A stretch of 64,000 bases of DNA. Source: Candidatus Magasanikiibacteriota bacterium (GTDB taxonomy: Bacteria > Patescibacteriota > Patescibacteriia > Magasanikbacterales > UBA922). The position numbers were made by a program, and so were the translations under genes. The notes below the pieces were generated by a model. It saw only the letters and a program-made list of their open reading frames with translations. It did not search any database and was not told the DNA's origin. The DNA lies in NCBI GenBank assembly GCA_041674805.1, contig JBAYVA010000004.1, positions 30,069 through 94,068 of the forward strand. Direction: 5' to 3'. Shown here in pieces: positions 1,546 through 35,822 of the stretch; position 1 is the first letter of the stretch, and the number at the start of each line of letters is the position of its first letter.

Positions 1546-4500
1546 ATGAGTCGTTTTGTCTTAAATCAAGTTTTGAAAATAAAAAACTTGTTGTCAAAAA
1601 TATTACCAAAAAAATTATCCAAATATCATTATTTGGCATTTTTTGTTTCTTCAATTATTTTAGTTTTTATTTTTTCTAGTCATAGTGTAATTGCTGAAGG
1701 TAGTACAGATGTTTTCGGTGGTATCGGTAATTGGGTATCTGGTGCTTTGTTGACTTTTGCTAATTTAGCTATTTTGTTGAGTATTTTCTTTTTGAAATTT
1801 TTTATTCATTTAGCTAGTTACAACAATTATATTGATGTAAATGTCGTAAAAATTGGTTGGGTGATGGTACGTGATGTAGCTAATATGTTCTTTGTGGTTG
1901 CTTTGCTTATTATTGCTTTTGCTACTATTTTAGGTATTGAAAAGTATGAATGGAAAAAAGGCCTAGTCAAGTTGATTGCTATGGCTATTTTGATAAATTT
2001 TAGTAATTTGATAGCTCAAGTTATTATTGATGTAGCTCATGTTTTTACAATTACTTTTTTGAATGCTATTTCTGCTAGTGCTGGTGGTAATTTGATCAAC
2101 ATGTTTGATTTGGCTGAAATAAATACAATGGTTCATGGTAGAGAGCTTGGTTCTGATATGCAACAAGCCAATTATGCCATATTTGGTGCTGCTGTGTTGG
2201 CTCTTATTTTTTCGGTTATTACAGCGGTAACCTTGGGAGCTTATGCTATCGTGATGGCTGCTCGTGTGGTGGTATTGTGGGCTTTGATCATTTTGTCTCC
2301 ATTGGCTTATCTTTTGTCAGCTTTGCCTGATGGTGACAAATATGCTAGTAAATGGTGGTCAGAGTTCAACAGGCATGTGATAGTCGCTCCGGTAATGGTT
2401 TTTTTCTTATGGTTGGCTTTTGCTACTTTTGGTAGCGGCAATATTATGGCTGAAATAAGTAAAAGTGCGACCGTACCTTTGGATACTGGTAGTATTCCTA
2501 CTTCTATATCTTTGTTAGAAGTTTCTACTTGGGAAAATATGGCCAGTTTTATTTTGGGTATTATATTTTTGGTGATTGGTCTAAAAATGACACAGGAAAC
2601 AGGAGCAACTGCTTCTGGTATGGTAAGTGCTGCTGTAGATTGGGGTAAGAAAGTGGCTACTATTGCTAGTGGTTATGCTCTGGGTAGATGGATGGTGGGT
2701 AAGGGCAAGGATGCTGTTATAGAAAACACACCTATTGTTGGTATGCGATCTTTAAGACGTTACGGTAAACAAATAAAAGGTGTTACTACTTATCCATTCA
2801 AAAGATTTGCTATTGCACGTGATGGGCAAGTTCAAAATTTAGAAAAAAAACGAGAGGATGCAAAAAAAGAAGGTAAAACTTTTAAAAGTTTTGCTTTGGG
2901 TGCTGCTGTACTTGGAGCTACAGCTCTTTGGAGTTCTTCAAAAAGAAAAGACACTCTGGCCGATAATTGGGAGGATATTGCTGAACATATGGATAGAGAG
3001 CATGAAGCAAAAATATCTACAAGTAGAACTCCAAGTGGTGATTTAAAACAAACTGCTCGTGTGAGAGCTGATTTTGCTGTGGAAGCTAAAGATACAAAAG
3101 GTCCTCAAAAAGGTGCTGAACGTGCTTTAAAACTTATAAAAGAAAATGATAAATCAGTAGTAGATTCTTTGAAGGCTATGTCTTCATCAAAATCAAAAGG
3201 TGAGGTTGTAACTGGTTTAGTTGATGAAGTTAAACGTGAAAAATATTTGAAAGAAAGAGATAAAGATCAAATTTTAGACAAAAAAACAGATGATGATACT
3301 TATATGAAAATTTTGGCACGAAAGAAAGTTTTTAATGAAAAATTTCAAGAAACTGTTGATACTGATAGGGATTTAATGCAAGAAGATACTAGATTACATT
3401 TACATGATACAGATGATAATTATAAAAATTTAGATAATAGATCTACAGAAGCTGGAGAAAGATTGACTCAAGCAAAAAATTTATATGCTAAACGTATGGA
3501 TGAAGGCTCTGCTGTTGAAAAAGCTAAACTTATGGAAGATGATAAATTCAAGAAGAGAGAGCAGGAGTTTGGAACTCTTGAAGCTAGAACAAAAGCTATA
3601 ACAGAAGATGTTAATTCTCAAAAAGAATTATATTTATTGAAAGCTATTAAAGAGATTTTAGGAGAAATAACATTAGATACAAAAGGTAATATGACTGGTC
3701 CAGAAGATAATGTTTATAGAAGATCTTTTGTTTCTAAAGCGGCTGTAGAGAGATTGAAAGATGGTGTGGAAAGAACACAAATTTCTTCGTTGGCTTCAGC
3801 TAGAGCAGAAGGATATGAAAAAGAATCTGATGATTTACGTGCTAATTCTGTAAGAAAAAATGCTGCAGCTGAAATACAAAAAAGAGATACTGAAATGTTT
3901 GCTAATTTGAGTTATCAAGATAGACGTTTATTAGAGCAGACATTGATTGTCAAAATTCAAGAAGCTGAGGATAAAGGAGATACAGATCTTTTGAAAAAAC
4001 TTAGAATGCAAAAAAATTCTTTGACTACTTTGAATATGTTAGATGACGCTGAAACTTCTCGTGATACTCGTATTGATGCTTTAGATAAATTGGGTATTAA
4101 CGAATTAGGAGATAAAAATCGTTTAAAAGCAGAATTGCAAAGACGTCTTGGTGTTCATACAACAAAACTTGAAGCAGTTTCTATGGATGAGGGCGAACAA
4201 ATAGCATATCTTCAAAAACTTTTTGATGATTTATATGAAGGTCAAGAAGTTCAAAAACAGATTGTTTTGGAACAAATAGAAAAAGCTATGAAATCTGTTG
4301 CTATGAAAGGTGATGAATATGGTCTTGGTCTTATCAATTCAACACCAAGTAGTGATGATATAGCTTCTGGTACAATAACAAGATCTTGGAAAAGTAAAGC
4401 CGATAATGACGAGACAGATTATTTTGCTACAAGAGCTAGAGGAGTTGATAGTATTGAAGGTTATGCTAAATTAAAGAAAATTGGTGATAAATATAAAATA

Positions 4501-7652: not shown

Positions 7653-8339
7653 ATGCAAAATAAAAAAGCTTTAAAAAAAATAAACAAAAAACCAAATACG
7701 CAGACATATTTGCCTATTGCTGAAATTAGAGATGATGTTGTGGTTTTGAAAGATGGCACTTTGCGAGCAGTACTTATTACTTCTAGTATCAATTTTTCTT
7801 TGAAATCAGAAGACGAACAAAATGCTACAATTTCTTCTTATGTAGGATTTTTGAATTCTTTGGATTTTCCTATTCAAATTAGTGTGCAATCTAGACGTTT
7901 GCAAGTCAAACCTTACTTAGAGAAATTGATGGACCAAGAAAAAAAACAAACAAACGAATTATTGCGCATCCAAACAGCTGATTATCGTTCTTTTATTGAA
8001 GAGTTAGTAGATATTGGCAAAATAATGACCAAAAAATATTATGTGATAGTTCCTTATGATCCTTTGTCTAATAATAAAAAAAGTTTTTGGTCAAGGTTCA
8101 AGGAAGTTGTCAAACCAGCAATTTCTTTACGTCTAAAAGACGAAAGATTCAAACAAAGAAAAGATGGTTTGGAAATGCGTGTTAGACAAGTATCTAGTGG
8201 TTTGGAAAATATGGGTTTATCTGTAGCGCAGTTAGATACACAATCATTGATAGAATTATATTATAATACTTACAATCCAGATATTGCTTTTGCAGAACAA
8301 TTGGGTGATATCGAAAAACAGCAAATAGAGGAGTTGTAA
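7653..8339 (+). CDS. VirB4/TrbE-like ATPase, N-terminal domain fragment (split gene)
   Basis: YLPIAEIRDDVVVLKDGTLRAVLITSSINFSLKSEDEQ...FPIQISVQSRRL resembles the VirB4 N-terminal (CagE/TrbE/VirB) domain. It stops 38 nt before the ATPase ORF. Confidence 0.5.
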   Translation: MQNKKALKKINKKPNTQTYLPIAEIRDDVVVLKDGTLRAVLITSSINFSLKSEDEQNATISSYVGFLNSLDFPIQISVQSRRLQVKPYLEKLMDQEKKQTNELLRIQTADYRSFIEELVDIGKIMTKKYYVIVPYDPLSNNKKSFWSRFKEVVKPAISLRLKDERFKQRKDGLEMRVRQVSSGLENMGLSVAQLDTQSLIELYYNTYNPDIAFAEQLGDIEKQQIEEL

Positions 8340-8377
8340 GTGTTTAGTTATTAAAAAAATAGTATATAATCATAAAT

Positions 8378-10255
8378 ATGCCTTTTAGACCTATTTCAAG
8401 CAGTAATATAAAAAACTTCAAAGATTACGAGCTTGAAGATAAAGAAAAAATAAAAATTAAAGAAGATTTAATATCTCTTGAAGAAGAGCGTGTTTATCGT
8501 GAAGGTACGGTGGCAATACGTGATCTTATTGCGCCCTCAGCTTTCAAAGTAGAACCAAATTTTTTACAATTGGGTGATACTTTTTTGCGTACTATTTTTG
8601 TAACTAGTTATCCTCGTTATATTGGAGTTGGTTGGAATGCTTCTATCCTCAATTTGAATTTGAGTATGGATGTTAGTATGTTTTTTTATCCTGTTAACTC
8701 TGCGGTAATTTTGAAACAATTAAAAAATAAAGTAGGTGCTTTGCAAGCACAATTGTCTTCAGACGCTGAAAAAGGCGCTGCCCGTGATCCTTTGAGAGAG
8801 ACAGCTTTACGTGATATAGAATCTTTGCGAGATGATTTGACTCAGGGTACTGAACATTTTTTTCAATTTGCTTTTTATATTACACTGTACTCAACAAGTA
8901 AAGAAGAATTGGACAAACAAACTGATGATTTGCACAATATTTTTGGTTCAAAATTGATTCATAGTAAACATGTTTTGTATCAATCTGAACAAGGCTTCAA
9001 TTCTACAATACCATTGGGAGTAGATGAATTAGTTATTTCTTTTAACATGAATTCATCTCCGATTGCAGCTTCATTTCCTTTTATATCCTCAGAGCTTACT
9101 AGTGATGATGGTATTTTGTATGGTATCAACAGACATAATAATAGTTTGATTTTGTTTGATAGATTTTCTTTGCAAAATGCCAATATGGTAGTATTTGCTA
9201 CTTCTGGTGCTGGTAAATCTTATGCTGTAAAATTGGAAATTTTGCGTAGTTTGATGATGGGTATTGATGTAATTGTAATTGATCCTGAAATGGAGTATGT
9301 TCATTTGTCTGAAGCTGTAAATGGTACTTATGTAAATATTTCTTTGGCTTCTGATAGTAAAGTAAATCCTTTTGATTTGCCAAGACCTGTTGGTCAACAA
9401 GTTTCAACTGAAGATGTGATTAGAAGTGCTGTCATTACTTTGAAAGGTTTGTTGCGTATTATGTTAGGTACTATAAATTCTACAGAAGATTCTATTTTGG
9501 ATAGAGCTTTGCTTGAGACTTATGCCAAAAAAGATATTACTATAAATAGTGATTTGTCTACTGTTGAAGCGCCTGTGATGCAAGATTTGCTGGATGTTTT
9601 GTCTGGTATGGATGGAGCTGAAAATTTAGTAATTAGATTAAAAAAATATACAGATGGTACTTTTGCTGGCTTATTCAATTCTCCAACCAATGTAAATACA
9701 AGTAATCAACTTGTGATATTTAGTGTGCGTGATTTGGAAGATGAATTGCGTCCAATGGCTATTTATACTTTGGTCAATTATATTTGGAATATTGTGCGTT
9801 CTGAAAAAAAGAAAAGATTACTTATGATAGATGAAGCTTGGTGGCTTATGATGCACGAAGATAGTGCCAAATTTATGTATGCTTTGGTCAAGCGTTGTCG
9901 TAAATATTTCTTGGGAGTAACAACTATCACTCAAGACGTCAATGATTTTTTGCGTTCTCCTTATGGACAAGCTATTGTGAACAACTCATCTATGCAATTG
10001 CTTTTAAAACAATCTCCTTCAGCAATTGATACTATTCAAAAGACTTTTATGTTGACAGAAGGTGAAAAATATTTGCTTTTGGATAGTCCGGTAGGACAAG
10101 GTATTTTCTTTGCTGGCAACAAACATGTGGCTATTCAAGTAGTTGCTTCTTATACTGAAGATCAATTGGTCACTACCAATCCTCAACAGCTTTTGGAAAT
10201 AGAAAGAGCCAAAAAAGATTTTCAAGATAAAATGAATAATGAGTATTTATCATAA
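8378..10255 (+). CDS. VirB4/TrbE-like conjugal-transfer ATPase, ATPase domain
   Basis: Walker A VVFATSGAGKSYAV, Walker B/DEAW motif LLMIDEAWWLM, and ITQ motif in GVTTITQD, all typical of VirB4/TraC. Confidence 0.65.
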   Translation: MPFRPISSSNIKNFKDYELEDKEKIKIKEDLISLEEERVYREGTVAIRDLIAPSAFKVEPNFLQLGDTFLRTIFVTSYPRYIGVGWNASILNLNLSMDVSMFFYPVNSAVILKQLKNKVGALQAQLSSDAEKGAARDPLRETALRDIESLRDDLTQGTEHFFQFAFYITLYSTSKEELDKQTDDLHNIFGSKLIHSKHVLYQSEQGFNSTIPLGVDELVISFNMNSSPIAASFPFISSELTSDDGILYGINRHNNSLILFDRFSLQNANMVVFATSGAGKSYAVKLEILRSLMMGIDVIVIDPEMEYVHLSEAVNGTYVNISLASDSKVNPFDLPRPVGQQVSTEDVIRSAVITLKGLLRIMLGTINSTEDSILDRALLETYAKKDITINSDLSTVEAPVMQDLLDVLSGMDGAENLVIRLKKYTDGTFAGLFNSPTNVNTSNQLVIFSVRDLEDELRPMAIYTLVNYIWNIVRSEKKKRLLMIDEAWWLMMHEDSAKFMYALVKRCRKYFLGVTTITQDVNDFLRSPYGQAIVNNSSMQLLLKQSPSAIDTIQKTFMLTEGEKYLLLDSPVGQGIFFAGNKHVAIQVVASYTEDQLVTTNPQQLLEIERAKKDFQDKMNNEYLS

Positions 10256-10877
10256 ACTAATTGCTATTTTTATGTTTACATTTAGACAAAGAATTTTTAT
10301 TTTTTCTGGTATTTTTGTGGGATTGGTTTTGGTTATTTTATTATATTTTTTTTATATAAAACCAAAAAACAATAAGCAAGAGAACACACCAGAAGTTGTG
10401 GTCAATGAAAATATTGTAGACAGCAATAATCCTAATTTAATTTTTGATAATTTAGCAAATAATAATCAAGTTATAAGTAAACCAGACGGAACACCAGAAG
10501 AACAATTTTTGAAACAGATGTCTAGATTTTTTGTAGAAAGATTTTTTACTTATTCTAATCAAAATAACAATGTTCATATTGTAGAATTACAAAGTTTGGC
10601 AACACCAAGTATGAATACTTGGATGAATACACAAATGAGAAAAAAAGAGCAAGACTATAGTGGTGTTACTACTAGAGTTTTTAGTATGTCTCTTATTAAT
10701 TTTGACAAAAATTTAGCAAAAGCTTCTGCCATGGTAGATGCTGAACATGTTATTTCTATTGAAAAAGATAATCAAGTAGAACAAAGTAAAACACAAAAAA
10801 AATACCAAGTAGATTTTGAATACGTTGATAATACTTGGAAAGTCTCAGCTGTTTGGGACAAAACTTTAAGCAATTAA
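10239..10877 (+). CDS. single-pass membrane protein, possible VirB8/PrgL-like
   Basis: N-terminal TM helix plus a roughly 160-aa extracytoplasmic domain. Its position after VirB4 mirrors Gram-positive T4SS order. No motif-level proof. Confidence 0.3.
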   Translation: MSIYHKLIAIFMFTFRQRIFIFSGIFVGLVLVILLYFFYIKPKNNKQENTPEVVVNENIVDSNNPNLIFDNLANNNQVISKPDGTPEEQFLKQMSRFFVERFFTYSNQNNNVHIVELQSLATPSMNTWMNTQMRKKEQDYSGVTTRVFSMSLINFDKNLAKASAMVDAEHVISIEKDNQVEQSKTQKKYQVDFEYVDNTWKVSAVWDKTLSN

Positions 10878-10885
10878 TTTTTTAT

Positions 10886-11578
10886 ATGATTTTGGGAGGA
10901 ATTGTCAATTCTTTAAAAGATATTTTTTTTCCAGTAAATTGTTTAAACTGTGCCAAAGAAGGTGCTTTTGTTTGTAATGAATGTTTTGAAACACTAGATT
11001 TGTCTGGTGTTTTTTGTTGTCCTATTTGTCACAAAGAAACTATTGATGGAAATTATTGTGATAATTGCCAACCTTTGTTTATAGACAAACATGTCGCTGC
11101 TATCAAATATTTAGAAACAGATTTGATAGGGGAGATAATCCATAATTTCAAATATCAGTATGTAGAAGATTTGGATAAAATAATTGAAAAAATGTTGATA
11201 AATTTTTTTGCAAACAAAAAAATAAGTGATATAGATTTAATAACTTTTGTGCCTTTGCATAGTCGTAGATATGTAGAAAGAGGATTCAATCAAGCTGAAA
11301 AAATAGCAATACTTTGTGGTAAAATTTTACATAAGCCGGTTACTAATTTACTCAAGAGAACTCGATATACACATCCACAAGCTCAGTTCAAAAGACAAGA
11401 AAGATTAGTGAATTTGCAAAATGCTTTTTCTTTAGAGAATAAAAAAGATGTGTTTGCCAAAAATATTTTGGTAGTTGACGATGTATTTACTACAGGTTCT
11501 ACTATTCAGGAGTGTGCTAAGGTCTTAAAATTGCATAAAGCTGCTAATGTATATGGTTTTAGTTTAGCTAGAGGTTGA
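10886..11578 (+). CDS. comFC: ComF family protein (ComFC-like, zinc-ribbon + phosphoribosyltransferase domain)
   Basis: CLNCAKEGAFVCNECF...CCPICHKETIDGNYCDNCQ double zinc ribbon and C-terminal PRTase motif ILVVDDVFTTGSTI. The start is set at the MILGG Met rather than the overlapping upstream TTG. Confidence 0.7.
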   Translation: MILGGIVNSLKDIFFPVNCLNCAKEGAFVCNECFETLDLSGVFCCPICHKETIDGNYCDNCQPLFIDKHVAAIKYLETDLIGEIIHNFKYQYVEDLDKIIEKMLINFFANKKISDIDLITFVPLHSRRYVERGFNQAEKIAILCGKILHKPVTNLLKRTRYTHPQAQFKRQERLVNLQNAFSLENKKDVFAKNILVVDDVFTTGSTIQECAKVLKLHKAANVYGFSLARG

Positions 11579-12650: not shown

Positions 12651-12651
12651 G

Positions 12652-12738
12652 CGGAGAGATAGGGATTCGAACCCTAGGAAGGTTTGACCCTTCAACGGTT
12701 TTCAAGACCGCCGCCATAGACCGCTCAGCCATCTCTCC
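12652..12738 (-). tRNA. tRNA-Ser (anticodon UGA)
   Basis: Acceptor GGAGAGA/TCTCTCC, G73, long variable arm, anticodon loop CUUGAAA, T-loop GTTCGAATC; no encoded CCA. Confidence 0.85.
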
Positions 12739-12774: not shown

Positions 12775-12852
12775 TTATTAAAATAAGGTTAATTTTTAAT
12801 AGTCAAATGTAAATTGTCAAGATTGGTGTATTGTTACTATGATGATCAAAAG

Positions 12853-12941
12853 CGGAGAAGGCGGGATTCGAACCCGCGGTCCGGTTTTACCCAGACAACA
12901 CATTAGCAGTGTGCCCCTTTCGGCCTCTCAGGCACCTCTCC
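12853..12941 (-). tRNA. tRNA-Ser (anticodon GCU)
   Basis: Acceptor GGAGAGG, long variable arm, anticodon loop CUGCUAA, GTTCGAATC T-loop; no encoded CCA. Confidence 0.85.
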
Positions 12942-13026: not shown

Positions 13027-13116
13027 TGGCGGAGAGACAGGGATTCGAACCCTGGGTCCCCTTGCGGAGACTGCAGTTTAGTAAACTGCTGCTATCGGCC
13101 ACTCAGCCATCTCTCC
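13027..13116 (-). tRNA. Ser-type (class II) tRNA with atypical anticodon loop UUACUAA (anticodon ACU), CCA encoded
   Basis: Acceptor and D arm are identical to tRNA-Ser(UGA). Anticodon stem GCAGU/ACUGC with loop TTACTAA, long variable arm, G73 and a genomically encoded CCA. Confidence 0.6.
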
Positions 13117-13717: not shown

Positions 13718-15730
13718 ATGTTTGAAAATTTTTTCAAAAAAGAAAATGAAAAGTTGGTTAATTTTTCGTGGAAACGTGTTTGGTTGATTATTACAATATT
13801 TGTTGTAATGGTTGGTGTTTTTTTTGTGGCTAGTTTTGTTTATGTAGATAGTTACAAAGAAAAAGTTTTGCCAGGTGTTTATTTGGGTGGTATTCATATT
13901 GGAGGTATGGACAAAGAAAATTTGACTACCTATATTCAAAGCATGAATACTAAATTGTTAAATAAAGGTATTTTATTTAATTTTTCATTTGAAGGTGAAG
14001 AAAAAAAATTTACGGTTTATCCTTCAGTTCTTGCCAAAGAGGAAACACGTGATTTGATAGATTTAGACATACAAAAAGAAGTAGATAGTTTAATTTATTA
14101 TCGTAAAAATGATAATTTTTTGTCTGATATATTTTCGGCTGTTTTGGTACGTATTCAAAAACCTACTTTGAATTTAGAAACTGTAAAAATAGACAAGAAT
14201 GAACTTTTTATACAAATACAAAATTTTTTGAAAGATTATATAAAAGAACCAAAAAATGCTACTATCAAAATTACTACATTGGATCCTCTTAAATATGAAT
14301 TAGTTTCTTCGACATCAGGTTATTCTTTTGACTACGAAATGGTAGCTGGTAAGATTTTGAAATCTTGGTCAAATTTAGAAACACCTAATATTGATATTGT
14401 CTCTCATGCTAAGGATGCTGAAATAAAAGAAGAAGATGTAAAATTAATGACAGACAAATTAAGTAAAATTTTTGATGGCGGTCCTCTAAATATTTCTTAT
14501 ATAGATAAATTTACTACTAAAAAGTATAATTGGGTGATTACAACTAAGATGATTTCAGATTGGTTGGAGGTCCAAAAAAATAATGAAGGTAATTTATCTT
14601 TTGGTTTAAATTTTGCTTCTACTACAGAATTCTTTTTAAAAGAAATTGAACCTAATGTAAACATAAAAGCTCAAGATGCCAAATTTCAAATTGGTGCTAA
14701 TGGAAAAGTTAATGAGTTTGTTGGTTCTAGACCTGGTGCAACAGTAGATACTGAAGCTACTTTAGAAAAAGTCAAAGAAGCTTTTGATTCTAGAATTTTA
14801 CATTTGGATGCTGTAGTAAAAAATGTAGATTTGGTAATCAAAGAGACAAAACCAAATATCAAAACAGGAGAAGTCAATGATTTAGGTATCTCTGAAATTA
14901 TTGGTGTTGGACAATCTAGATTTAAAGGTAGTCCTACAAATCGTATCAAAAACATAAAACATGCTATTTATGATAAGTTGAATGGTTTACTTATCAAACC
15001 TAATGAAGACTTTTCTCTTGTAAACGCTTTAAGACCTTTTACTGTTGCAGATGGATATTTACCAGAGTTAGTTATCAAAGGTGATGAAATAAAACCAGAA
15101 GTTGCTGGTGGTTTATGTCAGGTAGGTACTACAATGTTTCGTGCCGCTATGAATTCTGGATTAAAAATTACTGCAAGAAGAAATCATTCTTTAGTTGTGA
15201 GTTATTATAATGATTTATCAAATGGTAATCCTGGTACAGATGCTACTATTTATGATCCAAATCCAGATTTTCGTTTTTTGAATGATACTGGTAATTATAT
15301 TTTGGTTACAACTGAAATGAATACACAAACAGGTGATCTTTTCATTTATCTTTGGGGAACAAATGATGGTCGTAAAGCTTCATATAGTCCACCAGTTGTT
15401 TCTAAATGGATACCTACAGGACCAGTCAAGAATATAGAAACAACAAATTTAGCTCCTGGCAAAAAAGAATGTCAAGAATCTCATGTTGGTGCTCAAACTT
15501 CTTTTACCTATACTCGTGTTTTGGCTGATGGTAAGAAAGAAAATGTTGTTTTTGATAGTTATTATCGACCTTTACCAAAGATTTGTTTGGTGGGTGTAGA
15601 ACCAAAAGTGGAAGCTACTATACCAAGTACTGAAGAAATACCAAATACTACAGAAGAAATTACAGCAGAGGTACCTGTTTTAGAAGAAAATCAATTACCT
15701 TTTGATCTAAATGACCCTGTTTTGAATTGA
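13718..15730 (+). CDS. VanW family protein with N-terminal TM anchor and C-terminal extension
   Basis: VanW-domain signature EVAGGLCQVGTTMFRAAMNSGLKITARRNHS; single N-terminal TM helix; TGA stop. Confidence 0.65.
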   Translation: MFENFFKKENEKLVNFSWKRVWLIITIFVVMVGVFFVASFVYVDSYKEKVLPGVYLGGIHIGGMDKENLTTYIQSMNTKLLNKGILFNFSFEGEEKKFTVYPSVLAKEETRDLIDLDIQKEVDSLIYYRKNDNFLSDIFSAVLVRIQKPTLNLETVKIDKNELFIQIQNFLKDYIKEPKNATIKITTLDPLKYELVSSTSGYSFDYEMVAGKILKSWSNLETPNIDIVSHAKDAEIKEEDVKLMTDKLSKIFDGGPLNISYIDKFTTKKYNWVITTKMISDWLEVQKNNEGNLSFGLNFASTTEFFLKEIEPNVNIKAQDAKFQIGANGKVNEFVGSRPGATVDTEATLEKVKEAFDSRILHLDAVVKNVDLVIKETKPNIKTGEVNDLGISEIIGVGQSRFKGSPTNRIKNIKHAIYDKLNGLLIKPNEDFSLVNALRPFTVADGYLPELVIKGDEIKPEVAGGLCQVGTTMFRAAMNSGLKITARRNHSLVVSYYNDLSNGNPGTDATIYDPNPDFRFLNDTGNYILVTTEMNTQTGDLFIYLWGTNDGRKASYSPPVVSKWIPTGPVKNIETTNLAPGKKECQESHVGAQTSFTYTRVLADGKKENVVFDSYYRPLPKICLVGVEPKVEATIPSTEEIPNTTEEITAEVPVLEENQLPFDLNDPVLN

Positions 15731-15752
15731 TTTGTGGACATATAATATATAA

Positions 15753-15786
15753 AATTGGCTTAAATAAGCCAATTTTTGTTTTTTAT
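15753..15786 (+). terminator. rho-independent terminator after VanW-like gene
   Basis: Hairpin ttggctt-aaat-aagccaa followed by TTTTTGTTTTTT. Confidence 0.65.
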
Positions 15787-15798
15787 CCTTATTTACTC

Positions 15799-15827
15799 TT
15801 GACAACTTTGTTATAATATGTTATTAT
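15799..15827 (+). promoter_or_regulatory. strong sigma70-like promoter (TTGACA-17-TATTAT) driving the non-coding unit
   Basis: TTGACA at 15799-15804 and TATTAT at 15822-15827 with exact 17-bp spacing. No ORF follows. Confidence 0.45.
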
Positions 15828-15833
15828 ATCAAG

Positions 15834-16159
15834 TCGTATAAAAAAAGGTTTAACAGTTTAAGAATGTAGTAAAGTATATTTTTGACACATAAGCTTAGTA
15901 AATAAAAATATACGCTCCTGTATTCACAACTATAAATAGTTAAAGCTAAACGAGGATTTAGGATAGTGCGTTTTTCTTAGTAAAGTCTATTAAAAACATA
16001 TTATCCTGTATCCACGACAAGCATGGGGGTGTGTTGTAGGCTAGGGCAGGCTACGGCTCGCAATTGACCTAGAACACACCTTCTTGGATCAGGTAAGGAC
16101 TCAATTCCTTAATCTTTTAAATATTCCTCAACACATTTGTGCTGAGGAATTTTTTTTTG
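15834..16159 (+). ncRNA. candidate structured ncRNA, RNase P RNA (rnpB)-like
   Basis: Promoter-to-terminator unit of about 325 nt with no ORF of 60 aa or more. It contains GCUAGGGCAGG (RNase P CR-II), a 13-nt exact match GGAUCAGGUAAGG (the E. coli M1 RNA J11/12 region), and AGUAAAGUCU resembling the P4 5' strand. A canonical P4 3' strand (ACAGAA..GGCUUA) was not found in the expected place. Confidence 0.4.
16124..16159 (+). terminator. rho-independent terminator ending the ncRNA unit
   Basis: Hairpin cctcaac-acatttgt-gctgagg followed by AATTTTTTTTT. Confidence 0.6.
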
Positions 16160-16237
16160 ACACTGATTACACTGATTAGAAAAGATTACACTGAAAAATA
16201 AGCTAAGATCTTTAAACCATTATTTTTGTTTATTTAA

Positions 16238-16262
16238 AAACAGACGTGTATTAGTCTGTTTT
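16238..16262 (-). terminator. terminator hairpin overlapping the stop of the HAD hydrolase gene
   Basis: aacagac-gtgtatta-gtctgtt with T-runs on both strands. Confidence 0.5.
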
Positions 16263-16844
16263 TGTTTTTAGATATTTTATAAATTTATCAAAGTCTTTGT
16301 ATAAATAAGATTCTATACCTAATTCTTTGGCAATCTCTATATTTTTTACATCATCATCTAAATAAAATATTTCTTTTGCTGGAATATTTAGATTATCTAA
16401 TATGAATTCATAAAATTCTTTAGTTGGTTTTTTGTGTCCAATATAAGCTGAAGAAAAAATTCCATCAAATAATTCTCCAAATTTCATTTTATTCTTCAAA
16501 TATTCTGTGCGGTATTTTTCTTGATTGGTGGCTAAATAGCACTTTATACCTTCTTTTTTTAATTGATTTATAAATTCTATAACTTTTTCATCGATATTAT
16601 TTTCATGTTCAAACCACTGTTTTAGAAATTCATCTACACTTTCATTCCATTGCCATTTTACTAGCCATGGTTTAATTACTTCTTTTAGGTCTGCTTTGCC
16701 TTTCATGCAGTCTTGAAACACTCCTGTAAAAAATGGTAACATTTCTTCTTTTGGAATATTATTTTTTTGACTGTAGTGATTACTAAACATTTCAGATAAA
16801 ACGACTACACCATCTGTGTCAAAAAGAAAAACTTTGTATTTCAT
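16251..16844 (-). CDS. HAD-superfamily hydrolase
   Basis: N-terminal DxD motif FLFDTDGVVV and HAD motif III/IV (YLDDD). Confidence 0.65.
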   Translation of the reverse strand: MKYKVFLFDTDGVVVLSEMFSNHYSQKNNIPKEEMLPFFTGVFQDCMKGKADLKEVIKPWLVKWQWNESVDEFLKQWFEHENNIDEKVIEFINQLKKEGIKCYLATNQEKYRTEYLKNKMKFGELFDGIFSSAYIGHKKPTKEFYEFILDNLNIPAKEIFYLDDDVKNIEIAKELGIESYLYKDFDKFIKYLKTKTD

Positions 16845-16864
16845 AATTTTCTTAATAAAACGTT

Positions 16865-16888
16865 AGGGACAGGTCTAGACCTGTCCCT
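16865..16888. terminator. perfect palindromic hairpin between clpP and HAD genes
   Basis: agggacaggtctagacctgtccct (11-bp arms) immediately downstream of the clpP stop. Confidence 0.55.
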
Positions 16889-16906
16889 ACAATTTATATA
16901 ATATTA

Positions 16907-17518
16907 TTATTTCTCAATCACTTTGTCTACCAAACCATATTTTACAGCTGCCTGAGCACTCATGAAATTGTCACGGTCTGAATCATTTTCGATAGTAGTT
17001 AATTTTTGACCAGTGTGTTTTTGTAAAATTGCGTTTAGGTTGTCTTTCATTTTTAGTATTCTTTCAGCGTGAATCTTGATATCACTAGCTTGGCCTTGAG
17101 TGCCACCCATGACTTGGTGAATCATGACTTCACTGTTTGGCAAGCAAAATCTTTTGCCTTTGGCTCCTGCGGCTAATAAAACTGAGGCCATACTAGCTGC
17201 CATACCAATACAAATAGTAGATACATCAGGTTTTACAAATTGCATAGTGTCGTAGATAGCTAAGCCAGCTGTGACTGAACCACCAGGGGAATTGATATAT
17301 ATTTTGATATCTTTTTCTGGATCTTGATTGGCCAAGAATAATAGTTGAGCTATCACAATATTAGCGACTTGGTCATTGATTTCTGTGCCCAAAAAAATTA
17401 TTCTGTCTTTGAGTAGTCTGGAATAAATATCATAAGCACGTTCACCATAACTAGTCTTTTCTATAATAGTTGGGATGAGGATTTGAGAAGTTATCTCTTG
17501 GTTGGAAGAGTTGTTCAT
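16907..17518 (-). CDS. clpP: ATP-dependent Clp protease proteolytic subunit
   Basis: ClpP signature around the catalytic Ser ([11 protein letters not shown]), His (MIHQ) and Asp; full-length, about 200 aa. Confidence 0.9.
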
Positions 17519-27819: not shown

Positions 27820-28836
27820 ATGCGTAAAGCACTAATAACCGGTATCACCGGACAAGATGGATCTTATTTAGCAGAATTATTGCTAGAAAAAGGTTATGAA
27901 GTACATGGTATTATTCGTCGTTCTAGTAGTTTTAATACGGAAAGAATAGATCATATTTATCGTGATAAACATGAAAAAGGTGTTAAATTATTTTTGCATT
28001 ATGGTGATTTGACAGATAGTAGCAATGTTAGTCGTATTTTGGAAGAAGTAAAACCTGATGAAATATACAATTTGGGAGCACAGAGTCATGTGCGTGTAAG
28101 TTTTGATTTACCAGAGTACACAGCTGATGCTGATGGTTTGGGAACATTACGTTTACTTGATGCTATTCGTGACAAAGGTATGGATGTAAAATTTTATCAA
28201 GCAGGAAGTTCAGAAATGTTTGGCAAAGTTTTGGAAATTCCACAAAAGGAAACAACAGCATTTTATCCTCGTAGTCCATATGCTTGTGCCAAAGTTTATG
28301 CTCATCATATTGCTGTTAATTATCGTGAAAGTTACAATATGTTTGTTTGTAACGGAATACTATTTAATCATGAATCTCCTCGTCGTGGTGGCACTTTTGT
28401 TACCAAAAAAATTGTGGATGCTTTCAAAAATATCAAAGAAGGAAAACAAGAAAAATTGTATTTGGGTAATCTAGAAGCCAAGCGTGATTGGGGTTATGCT
28501 TGTGATTATGTAGAAGCTATGTGGATGATGCTTCAACAAAAAGAGGCTGATGATTATGTCATTGCTACTGGCGAAACTCATAGTGTGCGTGAATTTGTGG
28601 AGGAATCTGCTCCTTATTTTGGTTTTGCTATTGAGTGGAAGGGAAGTGGTATGAAAGAAAAAGGAATTGATAAAAATAGTGGTAAAGTTTTGATTGAAAT
28701 AGATGAACAATATTTTCGTCCAGCAGAAGTAGATTTGCTATTGGGAGATGCTAGTAAGGCTAAAGAAAAATTGAATTGGGTACCAAAAACTAAGTTCAAA
28801 GAGTTGGTGAGTATTATGTGTGAGGAAGAAAAATAA
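27820..28836 (+). CDS. gmd: GDP-mannose 4,6-dehydratase
   Basis: [42 protein letters not shown] is near-identical in pattern to E. coli Gmd. Confidence 0.9.
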
Positions 28837-28889
28837 ATTTGTTGGTTTTTAGAAATTATGTTATAATATTTTCATAAAAAAATAAATGT

Positions 28890-28906
28890 GAGCAGAGGAG
28901 GGGGAG
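28890..28906. repeat. GC-rich 17-mer GAGCAGAGGAGGGGGAG (copy 1 of 2)
   Basis: A second copy, GAGCAAAGGAGGGGGTG, lies at 62992-63008. Both sit in AT-rich intergenic DNA next to long inverted repeats. Confidence 0.5.
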
Positions 28907-28914
28907 TGTATTTA

Positions 28915-28983
28915 GTCCATAAAGTTTATAAAGTCTATAAAGTAAAAAGTTGTGATTTTACGGACTTTATAAACTTTATGGAC
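28915..28983. repeat. perfect 21-bp inverted repeat (GTCCATAAAGTTTATAAAGTC ... GACTTTATAAACTTTATGGAC) between gmd and fcl
   Basis: Arms at 28915-28935 and 28964-28983 are exact reverse complements, with a 28-bp spacer. A third half-site, ggactttatgaac, lies at 28997-29009. Confidence 0.7.
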
Positions 28984-29002
28984 TTTAAATTTTAAGGACT
29001 TT

Positions 29003-29959
29003 ATGAACTATTTATCAAAAATTTATGTAGCTGGACATAATGGAATGGTAGGTTCTGCTATTTTGCGTTTACTTGAAAAACAAGGTTATACAAATATTAT
29101 TATACGTACGAGAGAAGAACTTGATCTGACAAATCAGCAATCTGTGGCAGATTTTTTTGCAACAGAAAAACCAGAATATGTGATTCTGGCAGCTGCCAAA
29201 GTGGGGGGAATTATGGCCAACAATACTTACCCAGCAGATTTTCTCTATCAAAATTTACAAATTCAAAATAATGTAATTCACAATGCCTATTTGAGTGGCG
29301 TGAAGAAGTTGTTGTTTCTTGGATCTTCTTGTATTTATCCAAAGAATTGTCCGCAACCCATGAAAGAAGAATATTTATTGACTGGACTTTTGGAAGAGAC
29401 AAACGAACCTTATGCGATTGCCAAGATTGCGGGAATAAAAATGTGTCAAAGTTACAATAGACAATATGGCACAAATTTTATTGCGGTCATGCCGACCAAT
29501 CTTTATGGGGAGAATGATAATTTTGATTTGAATAATTCTCATGTTTTACCAGCTTTACTTCGCAAGTTTCACGAAGCAAAAATAAATAATTTGTCAGAAG
29601 TAGAAGTGTGGGGTACAGGTACACAAAGACGGGAATTTTTGTATGTGGATGATATGACGAAAGCTTGTCTTTTTGTCTTACAAAATTTTAGTCCAACTAA
29701 GGACCAAAATGAAAATGGCGATATATTTTTTAATATTGGGACTGGAATGGATCTTACTATTCTAGAATTAGCAGAAATGATCAAGAAAATAGTTGGTTTT
29801 GAAGGAAATATAGTTTTTGACACTACTAAACCTGATGGAACTTTGCAAAAACTCTTGGATGTAACAAAAATAAATAACTTAGGTTGGAAAGATGAAAGTA
29901 GTCTAGAAGAGGGTATAAAACAGGTTTATGATTGGTATTTGGACCGTATTGACACCTAG
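29003..29959 (+). CDS. fcl: GDP-L-fucose synthase (GDP-4-keto-6-deoxymannose 3,5-epimerase/4-reductase); a ColC-like alternative is possible
   Basis: IYVAGHNGMVGSAI, LAAAKVGGI.ANNTYPADF and NEPYAIAKIAGIK.C.SYNRQYG collinear with E. coli Fcl. Confidence 0.85.
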   Translation: MNYLSKIYVAGHNGMVGSAILRLLEKQGYTNIIIRTREELDLTNQQSVADFFATEKPEYVILAAAKVGGIMANNTYPADFLYQNLQIQNNVIHNAYLSGVKKLLFLGSSCIYPKNCPQPMKEEYLLTGLLEETNEPYAIAKIAGIKMCQSYNRQYGTNFIAVMPTNLYGENDNFDLNNSHVLPALLRKFHEAKINNLSEVEVWGTGTQRREFLYVDDMTKACLFVLQNFSPTKDQNENGDIFFNIGTGMDLTILELAEMIKKIVGFEGNIVFDTTKPDGTLQKLLDVTKINNLGWKDESSLEEGIKQVYDWYLDRIDT

Positions 29960-30062
29960 TGATACCATATGATAAAATTGTTATAGTTGTTTAATCACTA
30001 CGTTTGTTGTAATTTATTTTTTAATTATAACATTTATAATTCTTACAAACATCTATAATATT

Positions 30063-30308
30063 ATGTCTGAAATCAAGCCCAACGAAGTATATACAACTAC
30101 AGAAGCTCAAGATTTACTAAAAATTAGTAGTAGTACCATGAAACGCCTGCTTAAACAAGGTCTTATTCGTGCTAATAAGATTGGTAAACAATACAGAATT
30201 CTTGGTCATGAACTTTTGCGTTTGCTTTCGCCTGTTGTAGACCAAAGGGTCACTGATTTATATCAAAAGGTGAAGATAAAAACAATTGAGAAAATTGATA
30301 AATGGTAG
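30063..30308 (+). CDS. small helix-turn-helix DNA-binding protein (excisionase/MerR-like HTH_17)
   Basis: YTTTEAQDLLKISSSTMKRLLKQGLIRANKIGKQYRI pattern of excisionase-family HTH domains. Confidence 0.5.
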   Translation: MSEIKPNEVYTTTEAQDLLKISSSTMKRLLKQGLIRANKIGKQYRILGHELLRLLSPVVDQRVTDLYQKVKIKTIEKIDKW

Positions 30309-30391
30309 TAGTATTTATTTTTTTATTTAAGTAGCCTTTTGTGTAATAAAAATTATTAGTTTTTAGTTGGAATGATATAATTATAAAAGTT

Positions 30392-32212
30392 ATGAAAAAA
30401 ATAATTCAAAAATTTAATTTTTTATATAAAATTAATGATCTTTTCAATAAAAAAGAAAAAATACATTTTTTATTTGTTTTGATTTTGTCGATTATTTCGT
30501 CTTTATTTCAAGCTTTGGGAATTATTTCTATACTTCCTTTTATGAGTATAATAATGAATTCAGATTTAATATACTCAAATTTTTTTTATTTTTATGTTTA
30601 TAATTTATTTAATTTTACAAGTGAAGGTTCTTATATATTTTTTGTAGGTTTATTTGTTTTATCAATTATTATACTTGGTAATTTAATTTCAGCTTTAAAT
30701 ATTTGGGTTAAAACATCTTTCATTTGGGGTAAAGAGCATAAGTTGTCAGTTTCTTTGTTGAAAAAATATTTGTCTCTCCCTTACATTTATTTTTTGGATA
30801 GAAACACTGCAGATTTGGGGAAAAATATATTGGTTGAAGTTGGAAATCTTATGAATGGTTTTCTTTTTCCATTTTTAAGAATATTATCTGATATAATAAT
30901 GATTTTGGTTATTTTGGCAACTCTTCTTTTTGTTAATTTTAAAATTACTTTAATTGCCTCTGTTGTTTTGATAACAGCTTATGTCATAATATATATTATG
31001 ATTTCTTTTAAATTAAAGAGCAAGGGTGTAGAACGTTTAGAAGAAAATAAAAGACGTTTTGAAACAGCCAATGAGGCATTGGGTGGAATAAAGGATGTAA
31101 AGCTTCTGGGTAGAGAATTATATTTTTTACATAGATTTTCTAAACATTCTCATAAATATTCTCAACTTATTATGTGGAGTGATGTAGTTGGACAAACACC
31201 TCGATATATAATGGAGATCTTTGCCTTTGGTGGAGTTATTACGTTAATTTTGTTTCTGTTTTCTTCTGGTTTTTTGATAAATGAAATTATTCCTTTGGTT
31301 AGTTTTTTTGTTTTTGCTGGTTATCGCTTAATGCCAGCATTGCAAGATGCATTTAATTCTTTTACTGTTTTTCGGTTTAATAAGGTTGTTTTGGACAGTA
31401 TACATAAAGATATGTTGGAGGATGGTATATATAAAGAAAAAAAAATTCTTAATGAAGAAAATTTAAAATCTATGATTTTTGAAAATGAAGTAGCTTTAGA
31501 AAATATTAATTTTCATTATCCTAATACACACAAAAAAGTGTTGAATGGTATAAGTTTAAATATAAAAAAGAAAACCTCTATTGCTATTGTTGGGTCTACT
31601 GGTTCAGGAAAAACAACTTTAGTTGATATTATTTTAGGACTTTTGAGTCCTCAGGAGGGACAAATTAAAATTGATGGTGTAGAAATAAATTATTCTAATA
31701 TTAGAAATTGGCAGGCTAATTTGGGCTATGTTCCACAACAAATATATCTTTCTGATGATACTTTAACTAGAAATATTGCTTTTGGAGTGCCAGATCATTT
31801 GATTGATAATGAACAAGTTAAAATGGTGGCTAAGATGGCTAGTATTGATGATTTTATTGAGAATGATCTTAAGGATTCATATAATACTATTATCGGAGAG
31901 AGGGGGATTAGGTTGAGTGGTGGACAAAGACAAAGAATAGGTATCGCAAGAGCTTTATATAATGATCCTAAAGTTCTTGTATTTGATGAGGCTACTAGTT
32001 CTTTGGATAATGTGACAGAAGACGCCGTACTAGATTCTATAGAAAGAATTTCAAAGTTTAAAACTATGATAATAGTTGCACATAGATTAACAACCATTAA
32101 AAAATGTGATATTGTATATTTATTAGATAAAGGTAAGCTTGTGGCTAGCGGAACCTATGAAGATCTAATAAAGACAAATGATCAATTTAAAATTATGGCA
32201 AAGAAATTTTAA
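30392..32212 (+). CDS. ABC exporter, fused permease/ATP-binding protein (MsbA-like)
   Basis: Six N-terminal TM helices; Walker A GSTGSGKTT, signature LSGGQRQR, Walker B VLVFDEATS. Confidence 0.8.
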   Translation: MKKIIQKFNFLYKINDLFNKKEKIHFLFVLILSIISSLFQALGIISILPFMSIIMNSDLIYSNFFYFYVYNLFNFTSEGSYIFFVGLFVLSIIILGNLISALNIWVKTSFIWGKEHKLSVSLLKKYLSLPYIYFLDRNTADLGKNILVEVGNLMNGFLFPFLRILSDIIMILVILATLLFVNFKITLIASVVLITAYVIIYIMISFKLKSKGVERLEENKRRFETANEALGGIKDVKLLGRELYFLHRFSKHSHKYSQLIMWSDVVGQTPRYIMEIFAFGGVITLILFLFSSGFLINEIIPLVSFFVFAGYRLMPALQDAFNSFTVFRFNKVVLDSIHKDMLEDGIYKEKKILNEENLKSMIFENEVALENINFHYPNTHKKVLNGISLNIKKKTSIAIVGSTGSGKTTLVDIILGLLSPQEGQIKIDGVEINYSNIRNWQANLGYVPQQIYLSDDTLTRNIAFGVPDHLIDNEQVKMVAKMASIDDFIENDLKDSYNTIIGERGIRLSGGQRQRIGIARALYNDPKVLVFDEATSSLDNVTEDAVLDSIERISKFKTMIIVAHRLTTIKKCDIVYLLDKGKLVASGTYEDLIKTNDQFKIMAKKF

Positions 32213-32233
32213 AAAATAATTAAAATTAATTTT

Positions 32234-33010
32234 ATGAAAGTAGTTATATTATGTGGTGGTTTAGGAACCCGTTTAAAAGAAGAAACTGAATTTAGACCAA
32301 AGCCGATGGTCCCTATTGGTAATAAACCTATTTTGTGGCATATTATGAAGATATATGCTCACTATGGTTTTAGTGACTTTATTTTAGCTCTTGGTTATAA
32401 AGGTGATACAATCAAGGAGTATTTTAATAACTATGAGTTAATGAATAATGATGTGACTCTTGAGTTAGGTAGACCAGAAAATCGTATAGTTTACCAGAAT
32501 CATAAAGAGATTGGTTGGAAAGTTACTTTGGCTGATACAGGTCAGTATTCTTTAAAAGGAGCTAGACTAAAAAAACTGGAAAAATATATTGAAGATGATG
32601 AATTCATGGTGACTTATGGTGATGGTGTCGCAGATATTAATATTGAAGAGCTTTTAAAATTTCATCGTAGTCATGGAAAGATGGTAACTGTAACTGGTTC
32701 TATTCCTTCATCTCAATTTGGAAAATTAACTATACAAGAAAATGATACTGTGAATTTTAATGAAAAACCAAAAGCTGATTCATATATAAATGGTGGTTTT
32801 TTTGTTTTTAATAGATCAATTTTTGAATATCTTACGACTGAAGATAGTTGTGATTTAGAATATGGGGTTTTAGAAAAACTTTCCCAATCTGGTGAAATTA
32901 AAGTTTATAAGCATAATAATTTTTGGGCGAACATGGATACCTTTAGAGATATGGAATATTTGAATAAATTATGGAATGAAGGTAATGCAAAATGGAAAAT
33001 TTGGAGTTGA
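32234..33010 (+). CDS. rfbF: glucose-1-phosphate cytidylyltransferase
   Basis: MKVVILCGGLGTRLKEETEFRPKPMVPIGNKPILWHIMKIY collinear with Salmonella RfbF/DdhA. Confidence 0.85.
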   Translation: MKVVILCGGLGTRLKEETEFRPKPMVPIGNKPILWHIMKIYAHYGFSDFILALGYKGDTIKEYFNNYELMNNDVTLELGRPENRIVYQNHKEIGWKVTLADTGQYSLKGARLKKLEKYIEDDEFMVTYGDGVADINIEELLKFHRSHGKMVTVTGSIPSSQFGKLTIQENDTVNFNEKPKADSYINGGFFVFNRSIFEYLTTEDSCDLEYGVLEKLSQSGEIKVYKHNNFWANMDTFRDMEYLNKLWNEGNAKWKIWS

Positions 33011-33038
33011 AAAATGAGAAAATTAAAATGGCAAAAAT

Positions 33039-35292: not shown

Positions 35293-35822
35293 AGTTCAAA
35301 GAGACTAAATTAAAAGGTCTTTATATTATTGAGCCTGAACTTAAAATTGATGAAAGGGGCTATTTTATGAGGACTTTCTGTATAGAAGAATTAAAGAAAA
35401 ATGATCTACAATTTACAGTTACACAAGTAAATCAAACCTTAACAAAAAAAAAGGGGACTATTCGTGGAATGCATTTTCAAAAATCATCAAAAGCGGAAGA
35501 TAAAATTGTTCAATGTTTGCGAGGTGCTATATATGATGTTGCTATTGATTTGCGTGAAGATTCAATAACTTATGGTCAGTGGGTTGCTGAAGAATTAACA
35601 GAAAATAATAAAAAATTGTTTTTAATACCTAAAGGTTTTGCTCATGGTTTCCAAACATTAACTGATAATTGTGAACTTCAATATTTTATGTCGGAATACT
35701 ACTCACCGGAGTATGCATCTGGTGTACTTTGGAACGACCCACTTTTTGATATATCATGGCCAATAAAAAAAATATTTCTTTCAGAAAAAGATAAAAAGTG
35801 GAATTTATTAAAAAAAGTATGA
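35289..35822 (+). CDS. NDP-4-keto-6-deoxy-sugar 3,5-epimerase (RmlC-like cupin)
   Basis: RmlC-family pattern ...RGMHFQ... with His/Tyr catalytic context; ATGA overlap with the next gene. Confidence 0.7.
   Translation: MKFKETKLKGLYIIEPELKIDERGYFMRTFCIEELKKNDLQFTVTQVNQTLTKKKGTIRGMHFQKSSKAEDKIVQCLRGAIYDVAIDLREDSITYGQWVAEELTENNKKLFLIPKGFAHGFQTLTDNCELQYFMSEYYSPEYASGVLWNDPLFDISWPIKKIFLSEKDKKWNLLKKV

Follow-up and report, generated by a model that had tools for sequence, protein, structure and literature searches.

A predicted structured RNA family with a near-invariant bulge, encoded beside vanW in Patescibacteria

Gene architecture and neighbourhood

The 64-kb stretch of a Candidatus Magasanikiibacteriota contig (JBAYVA010000004.1) analysed here, called the window throughout, carries a separate transcription unit for a non-coding RNA directly after a gene assigned to VanW. 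The RNA almost certainly belongs to a real structured RNA family, as evident from a core of covarying helices that recurs in related Patescibacteria. A preliminary description of the locus had pointed to strings within it that resemble the RNA of ribonuclease P (RNase P). Coordinates are positions in the window, and all features of the locus lie on the plus strand. The features that define the gene are as follows.

15799-15804, plus strand: -35 hexamer TTGACA, from the promoter scan
15819-15827, plus strand: extended -10 element TGtTATTAT (TG at 15819-20, TATTAT at 15822-27), separated from the -35 hexamer by a spacer of 17 nucleotides (nt)
15833-16158, plus strand: predicted transcript of about 326 nt, with the start inferred at G15833 (GUCGU) and the end at the U-tract of the terminator
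15833-16004, plus strand: variable 5' leader of hairpin modules, 172 nt here and from 26 nt (Uhrbacteria) to 416 nt elsewhere
15997-16102, plus strand: conserved core, recognised by the family covariance model R1 (90 bits, E = 4e-23)
16123-16158, plus strand: intrinsic terminator, a stem of 12 base pairs (bp) interrupted by one A·C mismatch, and then U9, present in the sequence and in every fold

The promoter at 15799-15827, which had been described as TTGACA-17-TATTAT right after the vanW terminator, was confirmed; it matches the consensus at 11 of 12 positions and is the top promoter-like site within 15000-17000. The vanW terminator hairpin lies upstream of it at 15751-15776. In nearly all species the -10 element is followed after 5 nt by GUY, the predicted start of the transcript. 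The terminator consists of AUUCCUCAACAC-AUUU-GUGCUGAGGAAU and then U9, 1 nt off the position first given to it (16124-16159), and it was missed by a consensus terminator scanner because of the single A·C mismatch in its stem. The view of the locus as an ORF-free unit of about 325 nt is borne out, as the longest open reading frame (ORF) from promoter to terminator has 31 amino acids (aa) and a TTG start. The predicted transcript folds at -99.6 kcal/mol (z = -6.75 versus shuffles), and the GC content is 51% at 16000-16100, in the 3' third of the transcript, as compared to 21-28% in the flanks.

Two observations concern the borders of the gene. The vanW terminator is a palindrome, TGGCTTA-nnn-TAAGCCA, with A and T runs around it; it is near-identical 3' of vanW in many species, and its sequence conservation exceeds the needs of a terminator. 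On the opposite side of the RNA gene, (GATT)ACACTG occurs three times at 16160-16193, as the tandem pair ACACTGATT and then GATTACACTG, between the terminator of the RNA and a bidirectional HAD-hydrolase terminator (16235-16264). These repeats are partly kept in two of the homologous loci (L006 and L007) and may be a protein-binding site.

The closest relatives of the VanW protein of the window are named Candidatus Magasanikbacteria, and the contigs with a VanW 46-66% identical to it all keep a long gap 3' of vanW. Conservation of the promoter, of the terminator and, most of all, of the RNA's 3' core is far higher than that of the neighbouring proteins, and the stems carry compensatory changes. 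The extent of the family was estimated by two scans. Species-representative genomes were scanned with the exact pattern CACGACAAGCATGG, 40-70 nt, CTTCTTGG, which fixes the 10-nt bulge described below, and the family RNA was recovered in at least 119 of them; one further match is due to chance. In the scan of metagenomes, the first nine bases of the bulge region were left free and CAU was fixed, and about 103 family members were recognised among the 119 metagenome matches listed. The family covariance model gave 72-105 bits, with one match each, for 88 of the first 100 metagenome loci.

The named hosts among the matches listed are Magasanikbacteria, Uhrbacteria, Kerfeldbacteria and generic Patescibacteria or Parcubacteria, the first three being lineages which we take to form GTDB class ABY1. 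Dozens of metagenome-assembled genomes (MAGs) with the RNA and the vanW-clpP synteny bear the title 'uncultured Gammaproteobacteria bacterium'; one is labelled 'Candidatus Udaeobacter sp.' and a few have 'Paceibacter/Paceibacteria' in their titles. Such odd titles are probably placeholder or wrong taxonomic labels.

The RNA adjoins vanW in about 120 of 130 loci, clpP is also found within the examined piece in 91, and its gene sits between the convergent 3' ends of vanW and clpP. Its orientation is that of vanW in a number of loci, among them the window, L006 and L012, and that of clpP in many others, e.g. L014, L015, L017 and L022. A TTGACA-17-TGnTAnnnT promoter is present upstream of the RNA in all 18 listed homologous loci, in both orientations, and scores above the cut-off in nearly all of about 120 loci; a GC-rich hairpin with a T-run lies 3' of the core in most family sequences listed. 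The possession of its own promoter and terminator in either orientation therefore indicates an autonomous gene and not an untranslated region of a neighbour. A BLAST comparison of the window region with phage and plasmid collections returned no match.

Conserved core and alternative folds

The core structure was derived from an alignment of 92 non-redundant sequences by RNAalifold and was extended by hand. Standard pairs fill 91.3% of the alignment cells as compared to 38-48% in controls with slid partners, compensatory changes occur in 23 of the 32 pairs, and none of 500 shuffles reaches the observed values. Model R1 matches the 64-kb window at full length once; its one further match is partial, on the minus strand of the same locus. 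The plus strand is assigned to the RNA because a transcript of the opposite strand would have A·C mismatches in place of the invariant G·U pairs, and because the scores of the two strands are 90 and 15.7 bits, respectively. The elements of the core, and two upstream segments related to it, are listed below.

15917-15926, plus strand: upstream diverged duplicate of the helix A 5' strand, CCUGUAUUCA, which pairs with 16084-16093 in the minimum-free-energy fold
15954-15966, plus strand: upstream partner GGAUUUAGGAUAG, able to pair with 16000-16013 in place of canonical helix A
16005-16014, plus strand: helix A, 5' strand CCUGUAUCCA (99% paired; compensatory changes in six of nine pairs)
16015-16024, plus strand: 10-nt bulge CGACAAGCAU, unpaired in the consensus and the most conserved element of the family
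16025-16040, plus strand: helix B, 5' strand, starting with the G·U-rich GGRGR (89% paired; compensatory changes in 12 of 16 pairs)
16047-16060, plus strand: apical hairpin C-A-GGC-UACG-GCU-C-G, with a UNCG-family loop and a G16049·U16058 wobble
16068-16083, plus strand: helix B, 3' strand (…CACACCUUC), from the covariation alignment
16085-16093, plus strand: helix A, 3' strand UGGAUCAGG, part of the 13-mer singled out in the preliminary description
16094-16111, plus strand: hairpin C, UAAGGA-CUCAAU-UCCUUA, found in Magasanikbacteria-type forms and variable (UAGGGAAUUUUCCCUA in L008)

In the consensus, CCUGUAUCCA of helix A pairs with UGGAUACAGG, and its replacements are compensatory, as in CUGCAGCC/GGCUGCAG and GGUCACGCCC/GGGCGUGACC, with up to five pair types at a position. 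The bulge is one-sided, with 10 nt on the 5' side opposite a single U. It reads CCACGACAAG in 90 of the approximately 103 members listed from the scan in which its first nine bases were free, and the other 13 differ from this by one change. Helix B starts as a G·U-rich step (GGRGR/YCUUC) and contains a few conserved mismatches before the tip, the consensus of which is C-N-GGY-UNCG-RCU-N-G, with a C-G pair that covaries with U-A. The G·U pair of the tip is present in 92 of 92 sequences and the neighbouring G-C pair in 86 of 92, at positions that the pattern of the first scan leaves unconstrained. The stretch from CACGAC to CUUCUUGG measures 73-77 nt in every listed match and the sequence of helix B turns over; the distance between bulge and tip is therefore fixed, and the helix that separates them drifts. 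The window RNA matches this definition of the family with its helix A, its bulge CGACAAGCAU, its helix B of fixed length and its GGY-UNCG-RCU tip.

Outside the core, the RNAs vary widely in length, and the shortest whole RNAs have 130-170 nt. The short-leader forms, folded for 19 species, display a single rod of about 130 nt, in which the 5' leader is paired with the 3' trailer and after which a separate terminator hairpin follows. The order along the rod is closing stem, helix A, bulge, helix B and tip, and the closing-stem sequences are unrelated between species. In the RNA of the window species, inserted hairpin modules precede the bulge on its 5' side. Duplicates of the helix A 5' strand similar to that of the window (CCCUGUAUCCACGACC) are found in L003, L006, L008 and L010, and the upstream partner covaries in L010, where GGGUGUAGG pairs with CUGUACCC. 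The minimum-energy fold of the window RNA pairs the proximal CCUGUAUCC with GGAUUUAGG at 15954-15962, and the upstream duplex exceeds cross-species controls in stability by an average of 2.4 kcal/mol. In the rod and in the branched fold alike, the bulge is directly adjoined by a CCUGUAUCC helix. An exchange of upstream and downstream partners by CCUGUAUCC has some energetic support in these folds, and it may represent a riboswitch-like alternation or the mere insertion of hairpins.

Near-invariant unpaired nucleotides beside conserved non-Watson-Crick pairs and a conserved GUY start of the transcript would be in keeping with an RNA that binds a ligand or processes itself, its pocket or active site being built from the bulge and the G·U pairs next to it. 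However, a downstream gene and an expression platform are absent, no known ribozyme or riboswitch model matches the RNA, and a plain hairpin with a single bulge provides few means of tertiary folding, which makes this explanation highly improbable.

Two further interactions of the bulge were considered and rejected. A pseudoknot of the 5' end GUCGU with ACGAC of the bulge, as a general feature, is at variance with the transcript starts, as only 28 of 131 loci start with GUCG and most with GUU or GUC; many loci form a local hairpin at the 5' end of the transcript. A sequence in the leader complementary to the bulge was also sought, and the complementary runs lie at inconsistent positions and have chance-like lengths.

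Relation to RNase P and other widespread RNAs

Two readings had been offered in the preliminary description, a highly reduced or divergent RNase P RNA and a different structured RNA that shares motifs with it; the former fails and the latter is right. The strings on which they were based do exist. GCTAGGGCAGG lies at 16040-16050, GGATCAGGTAAGG at 16086-16098 and AGTAAAGTCT at 15979-15988, and GGACU is encoded (as GGACT) at 16097-16101, 1 nt from the position stated for it (16096-16100). The 13-nt identity to Escherichia coli M1 RNA is real, as found by comparison with E. coli rnpB (M1 164-176), none of 2000 shuffles gave a 13-mer shared with M1, and there are two further identities of 9 nt, TAGGGCAGG (M1 80-88) and TCCACGACA (M1 341-349).

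These strings are, however, limited to a few close relatives or are merely strands of covarying helices. The 13-nt identity is confined to the closest relatives. GGAUCAGGUAAGG is swapped for GGAUACAG or GGGUGCGG in most members and is changed in L008, L010 and L011; it varies because it is only the 3' strand of a covarying helix together with the next hairpin. The 'AGGG' of GCUAGGGCAGG is replaced among orthologues by UGAG or AAAA. AGUAAAGUCU, which had been read as the 5' strand of helix P4, lies in a variable hairpin loop and is not kept in L003, L006, L008, L010 and L011, and this reading had to be given up. The absence of the P4 3' strand (ACAGAA..GGCUUA) was, on the other hand, correctly noted, since the motif pattern matches only the GGCUUA hairpins of the vanW terminator. 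A P4 helix of conserved region I (CR-I, GNAAAGUCNG) and conserved region V (CR-V, ACAGAA…GGCUUA) cannot form at the locus, where a CR-V-like strand was not found.

The check proposed earlier, a search of the locus with the Rfam models of RNase P, 6S and transfer-messenger RNA (tmRNA), gave no match even at E<=10. In Rfam 15, the models of RNase P, 6S, SRP (signal recognition particle) RNA and tmRNA found no match in the window at the gathering score or in 15650-16350 at E<=10. The same holds for any Rfam match at the RNA in 18 homologous loci and, at E<=10, in the minimal Uhrbacteria form. At the gathering score, Rfam 15 found four tRNAs only in the whole window. The catalytic and specificity domains of RNase P RNA are branched and span at least about 250 nt, whereas the core model of the present family is unbranched and has 106 positions. 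A hairpin core of about 105 nt, entire RNAs down to 130 nt and a sixteen-fold spread of leader length are all hard to reconcile with that ribozyme.

Chance resemblance is also illustrated by L158, a metagenome contig that carries the RNA at 13896-14001. Its string GGAAAGTCCGGTAGGGCAGGG at 4286-4310 resembles CR-I and J5/7 of RNase P RNA as closely as do the strings of the window RNA, and it was rejected as a chance look-alike, being located inside a 626-aa ORF and having no Rfam support. This ORF is taken to be the counterpart of a VirB4-like gene of the window. Canonical rnpB, ffs and ssrA were not found across 251 sequences (1.85 Mb) of the clade in searches with CR-I/CR-V-like strings and ARAGORN. 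In the candidate phyla radiation (CPR), RNase P RNAs are divergent, often missed at default thresholds and recoverable with RF00010 at low ones (PMC8172020), which lends the RNase P reading some support besides the identities to M1. However, RF00010-type RNAs were reported in every one of the 35 circular CPR genomes, a set that includes five of class ABY1 (Lui et al. 2021, PMC8172020). Along with the lack of a model match at E<=10 and of P4, and with a CR-I-like string that is unconserved, this leaves a reduced or divergent RNase P RNA with next to no probability, and the window RNA can be regarded with near certainty as something else. The case also calls for caution in method, as exact identities of 9-13 nt to a famous ribozyme did not amount to homology here.

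Other universal RNAs, or a gene for a small protein, were weighed in the same manner. The hairpin, about 110 nt long and conserved in its apical part, is loosely similar to SRP 4.5S RNA, smc and rpsP are nearby, and the bulge contains the sole conserved AUG. Models of SRP RNA and tmRNA, however, have no match in the window or the homologous loci. The tip is of the UNCG and not of the GNRA type, and the AGCA/GGAA motif of SRP domain IV is absent at the locus. The ORF from the conserved AUG spans 4-75 codons across homologues and yields no conserved peptide, therefore it is not a conserved coding sequence, and the substitutions are compensatory at the level of RNA. A divergent SRP 4.5S RNA or tmRNA, or a small-protein gene, thus carries very little probability.

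ARAGORN predicted no tmRNA in the window and none in the 251 sequences (1.85 Mb). A permuted tmRNA, suggested by tandem stop codons in some leaders and by the proximity of clpP, was rejected for want of an ARAGORN call and of a tRNA-like domain, and the window RNA lacks the leader segment that bears the tandem stops. Rejected likewise were an Alu-like UGUNR motif of SRP RNA in CCUGUAUCC, which is a strand of a base-paired, covarying helix, and a fragment of rRNA or an antisense to 16S rRNA, given the lack of any Rfam rRNA match; in what we take to be the relevant 16S sequence, AUGCAAGUCG, two central positions are not complementary to the bulge.

Some other genes of the window deserve mention. 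The VirB4-like gene at 7653-10255, for an ATPase of conjugal transfer or type IV secretion, is apparently split into ORFs of 228 aa and 625 aa, and a ComF-family protein is encoded at 10835-11578. Three tandem tRNA-Ser genes, at 13027-13116 (minus strand), 12651-12738 and 12852-12941, include one with the anticodon ACU (A34) besides GCU and UGA. The trio including ACU is also present in L003, L006, L020 and L058, and in L061 the genes for ACU and GCU are found. Apart from tRNA-Arg(ACG), tRNAs with A34 are rare in bacteria, and ACU repeats the decoding that GCU already provides. A same-strand run of sugar-nucleotide genes at 27820-36691, with ORFs that continue to about 48600, encodes GDP-mannose dehydratase, GDP-fucose synthase, enzymes of the CDP-glucose pathway, RmlC/RmlD and a PglK-like flippase, and a run of this size is notable in a genome of about 0.75 Mb.

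Candidate functions and comparison with known systems

The presence of two near-invariant sites at a fixed spacing, with free drift elsewhere, favours a docking, scaffold or decoy role, as in SRP or 6S RNA. A docking or scaffold RNA is accordingly our preferred reading, with a probability of roughly 0.45 as judged from comparison of sequences. The bulge and the tip would be docking surfaces for a conserved cellular partner, for which a protein or protein complex seems likelier than an RNA, and the RNA would act as a scaffold or decoy in a ribonucleoprotein and not as a catalyst of tRNA processing. A narrower form of the proposal, a subunit or decoy of a ribonucleoprotein exclusive to this branch of Patescibacteria and with an activity unlike that of RNase P, SRP, tmRNA or 6S RNA, is rather doubtful. 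In such a particle, a lineage-specific protein or a conserved protein that has been repurposed would read the bulge and the G·U/G-C tip.

Some points weigh against the docking or scaffold reading. Canonical helix A costs 12 kcal/mol in the window RNA as compared to the preferred branched fold, and by these folding predictions the rod may not be the sole functional form. The scan patterns fixed parts of the blocks that flank the bulge (CAUGG, CUUCUUGG), and the invariance of these blocks is partly an effect of selection by the pattern. In addition, a base-pairing seed, too, could explain why a single-stranded 10-mer is so extremely conserved.

Such a seed is the basis of another explanation, by which the RNA is a trans-acting base-pairing regulator and the bulge addresses a AUGCUUGUCG-like site in a highly conserved target RNA. 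The near-invariant 10-mer is unpaired in the consensus structure, and an own promoter, a hairpin and an intrinsic terminator are the architecture of small regulatory RNAs. Typical seeds of regulatory RNAs, however, are conserved less than at the level of a class, and the position of this one, as a bulge within a long duplex, is unusual. The 64-kb window contains no complementary site besides the gene itself, a single match with one mismatch being at chance level, and the conserved tip and the constant length of helix B are not needed by a seed. A regulator of this kind is considered improbable.

The most concrete version of the docking reading, and its leading specific rival, is a role as functional analogue of 6S RNA. 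By mimicking a promoter, the rod would bind the housekeeping RNA polymerase holoenzyme, and the bulge would template a short product RNA (predicted as 5'-AUGCUUGUCGUGGAUACAG…), the synthesis of which would unzip helix A and release the polymerase. The predicted rod has a closing arm and an apical arm of about 27 bp on the two sides of one large unpaired region, the gene has a strong promoter of its own and is present in one copy per locus, and the weak G·U-rich pairs beside the bulge could melt. No report of a 6S RNA in the candidate phyla radiation was found in the literature searched, and there is a reported precedent for lineage-specific replacements of 6S RNA found by synteny, namely Ms1 of Actinobacteria (PMC9130861).

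Several features nevertheless argue against a 6S analogue. The central bubble of 6S RNAs is open on both strands, whereas the unpaired region here is one-sided, with 10 nt against 1 nt in a consensus whose pairs right beside the bulge were fixed by the search patterns. The Rfam 6S models are without a match, as said above, and E. coli 6S RNA has no notable sequence similarity in or near the bulge, the sequence of which is much more conserved than is usual for 6S bubbles. Synteny with the gene for 5-formyl-tetrahydrofolate (5-formyl-THF) cyclo-ligase, located beside ssrS in E. coli, was not found. The fold-based case for a 6S-like polymerase mimic is hence weighed as unlikely.

A search of Rfam 15 and the literature revealed no family and no paper describing this RNA; on 6S, RNase P or other non-coding RNAs of the lineage, the literature searched yielded Lui et al. 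2021 alone. The family is new, and its kind is familiar, that of a lineage-specific structured small RNA without an assigned function; the window RNA could also be a functional analogue of a known RNA. Its hosts lend it weight, since much of bacterial diversity falls within the Patescibacteria (candidate phyla radiation), which have very small genomes and nearly all of which are without a cultivated member, and whose non-coding RNAs have hardly been mapped. A gene kept by such streamlined genomes is unlikely to be dispensable, and the bulge has remained nearly unchanged across more than 200 genomes and contigs, while the flanking VanW drifted to 46-66% identity. A covariance model, a defined core and an address between vanW and clpP make annotation, searches of metatranscriptomes and the use of the RNA as bait for its partner feasible.

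Among known systems, RNase P RNA (RF00010, type A; RF00011, type B) is similar to the window RNA in the short strings GGAUCAGGUAAGG, UAGGGCAGG and UCCACGACA, which the latter has in common with E. coli M1, in a GC-rich composition relative to the AT-rich genome and in a housekeeping gene context. It differs in that the window RNA has no P4 pseudoknot, CR-I, CR-V, multi-domain fold or model match, and the strings shared with M1 are unconserved inside the new family. Bacterial SRP RNA (4.5S; RF00169) also is a long irregular hairpin with two conserved sites at a fixed distance, one of them very highly conserved. The window RNA, in contrast, lacks a GNRA tetraloop, the symmetric and asymmetric loops of domain IV and a match to the model, and its most conserved site is located about 26 bp below the tip rather than beside it.

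The resemblance to 6S RNA (ssrS; RF00013) and Ms1 lies in a stand-alone, mostly double-stranded rod of about 130-330 nt with a conserved unpaired region between two arms, encoded by a single-copy gene with a strong housekeeping-type promoter. The window RNA is set apart from both by its one-sided 10-nt bulge in place of a two-sided bubble, by the near-invariance of this bulge across orders, by the lack of a model match and by different neighbouring genes. The raiA motif RNA and OLE RNA are comparable to it in being defined by conservation and covariation alone, in belonging to one bacterial lineage and in having no assigned biochemical function. The window RNA is distinguished from these two by its sequence and fold, by the lack of an Rfam match, by a much simpler, unbranched core with one dominant bulge and by its Patescibacteria hosts.

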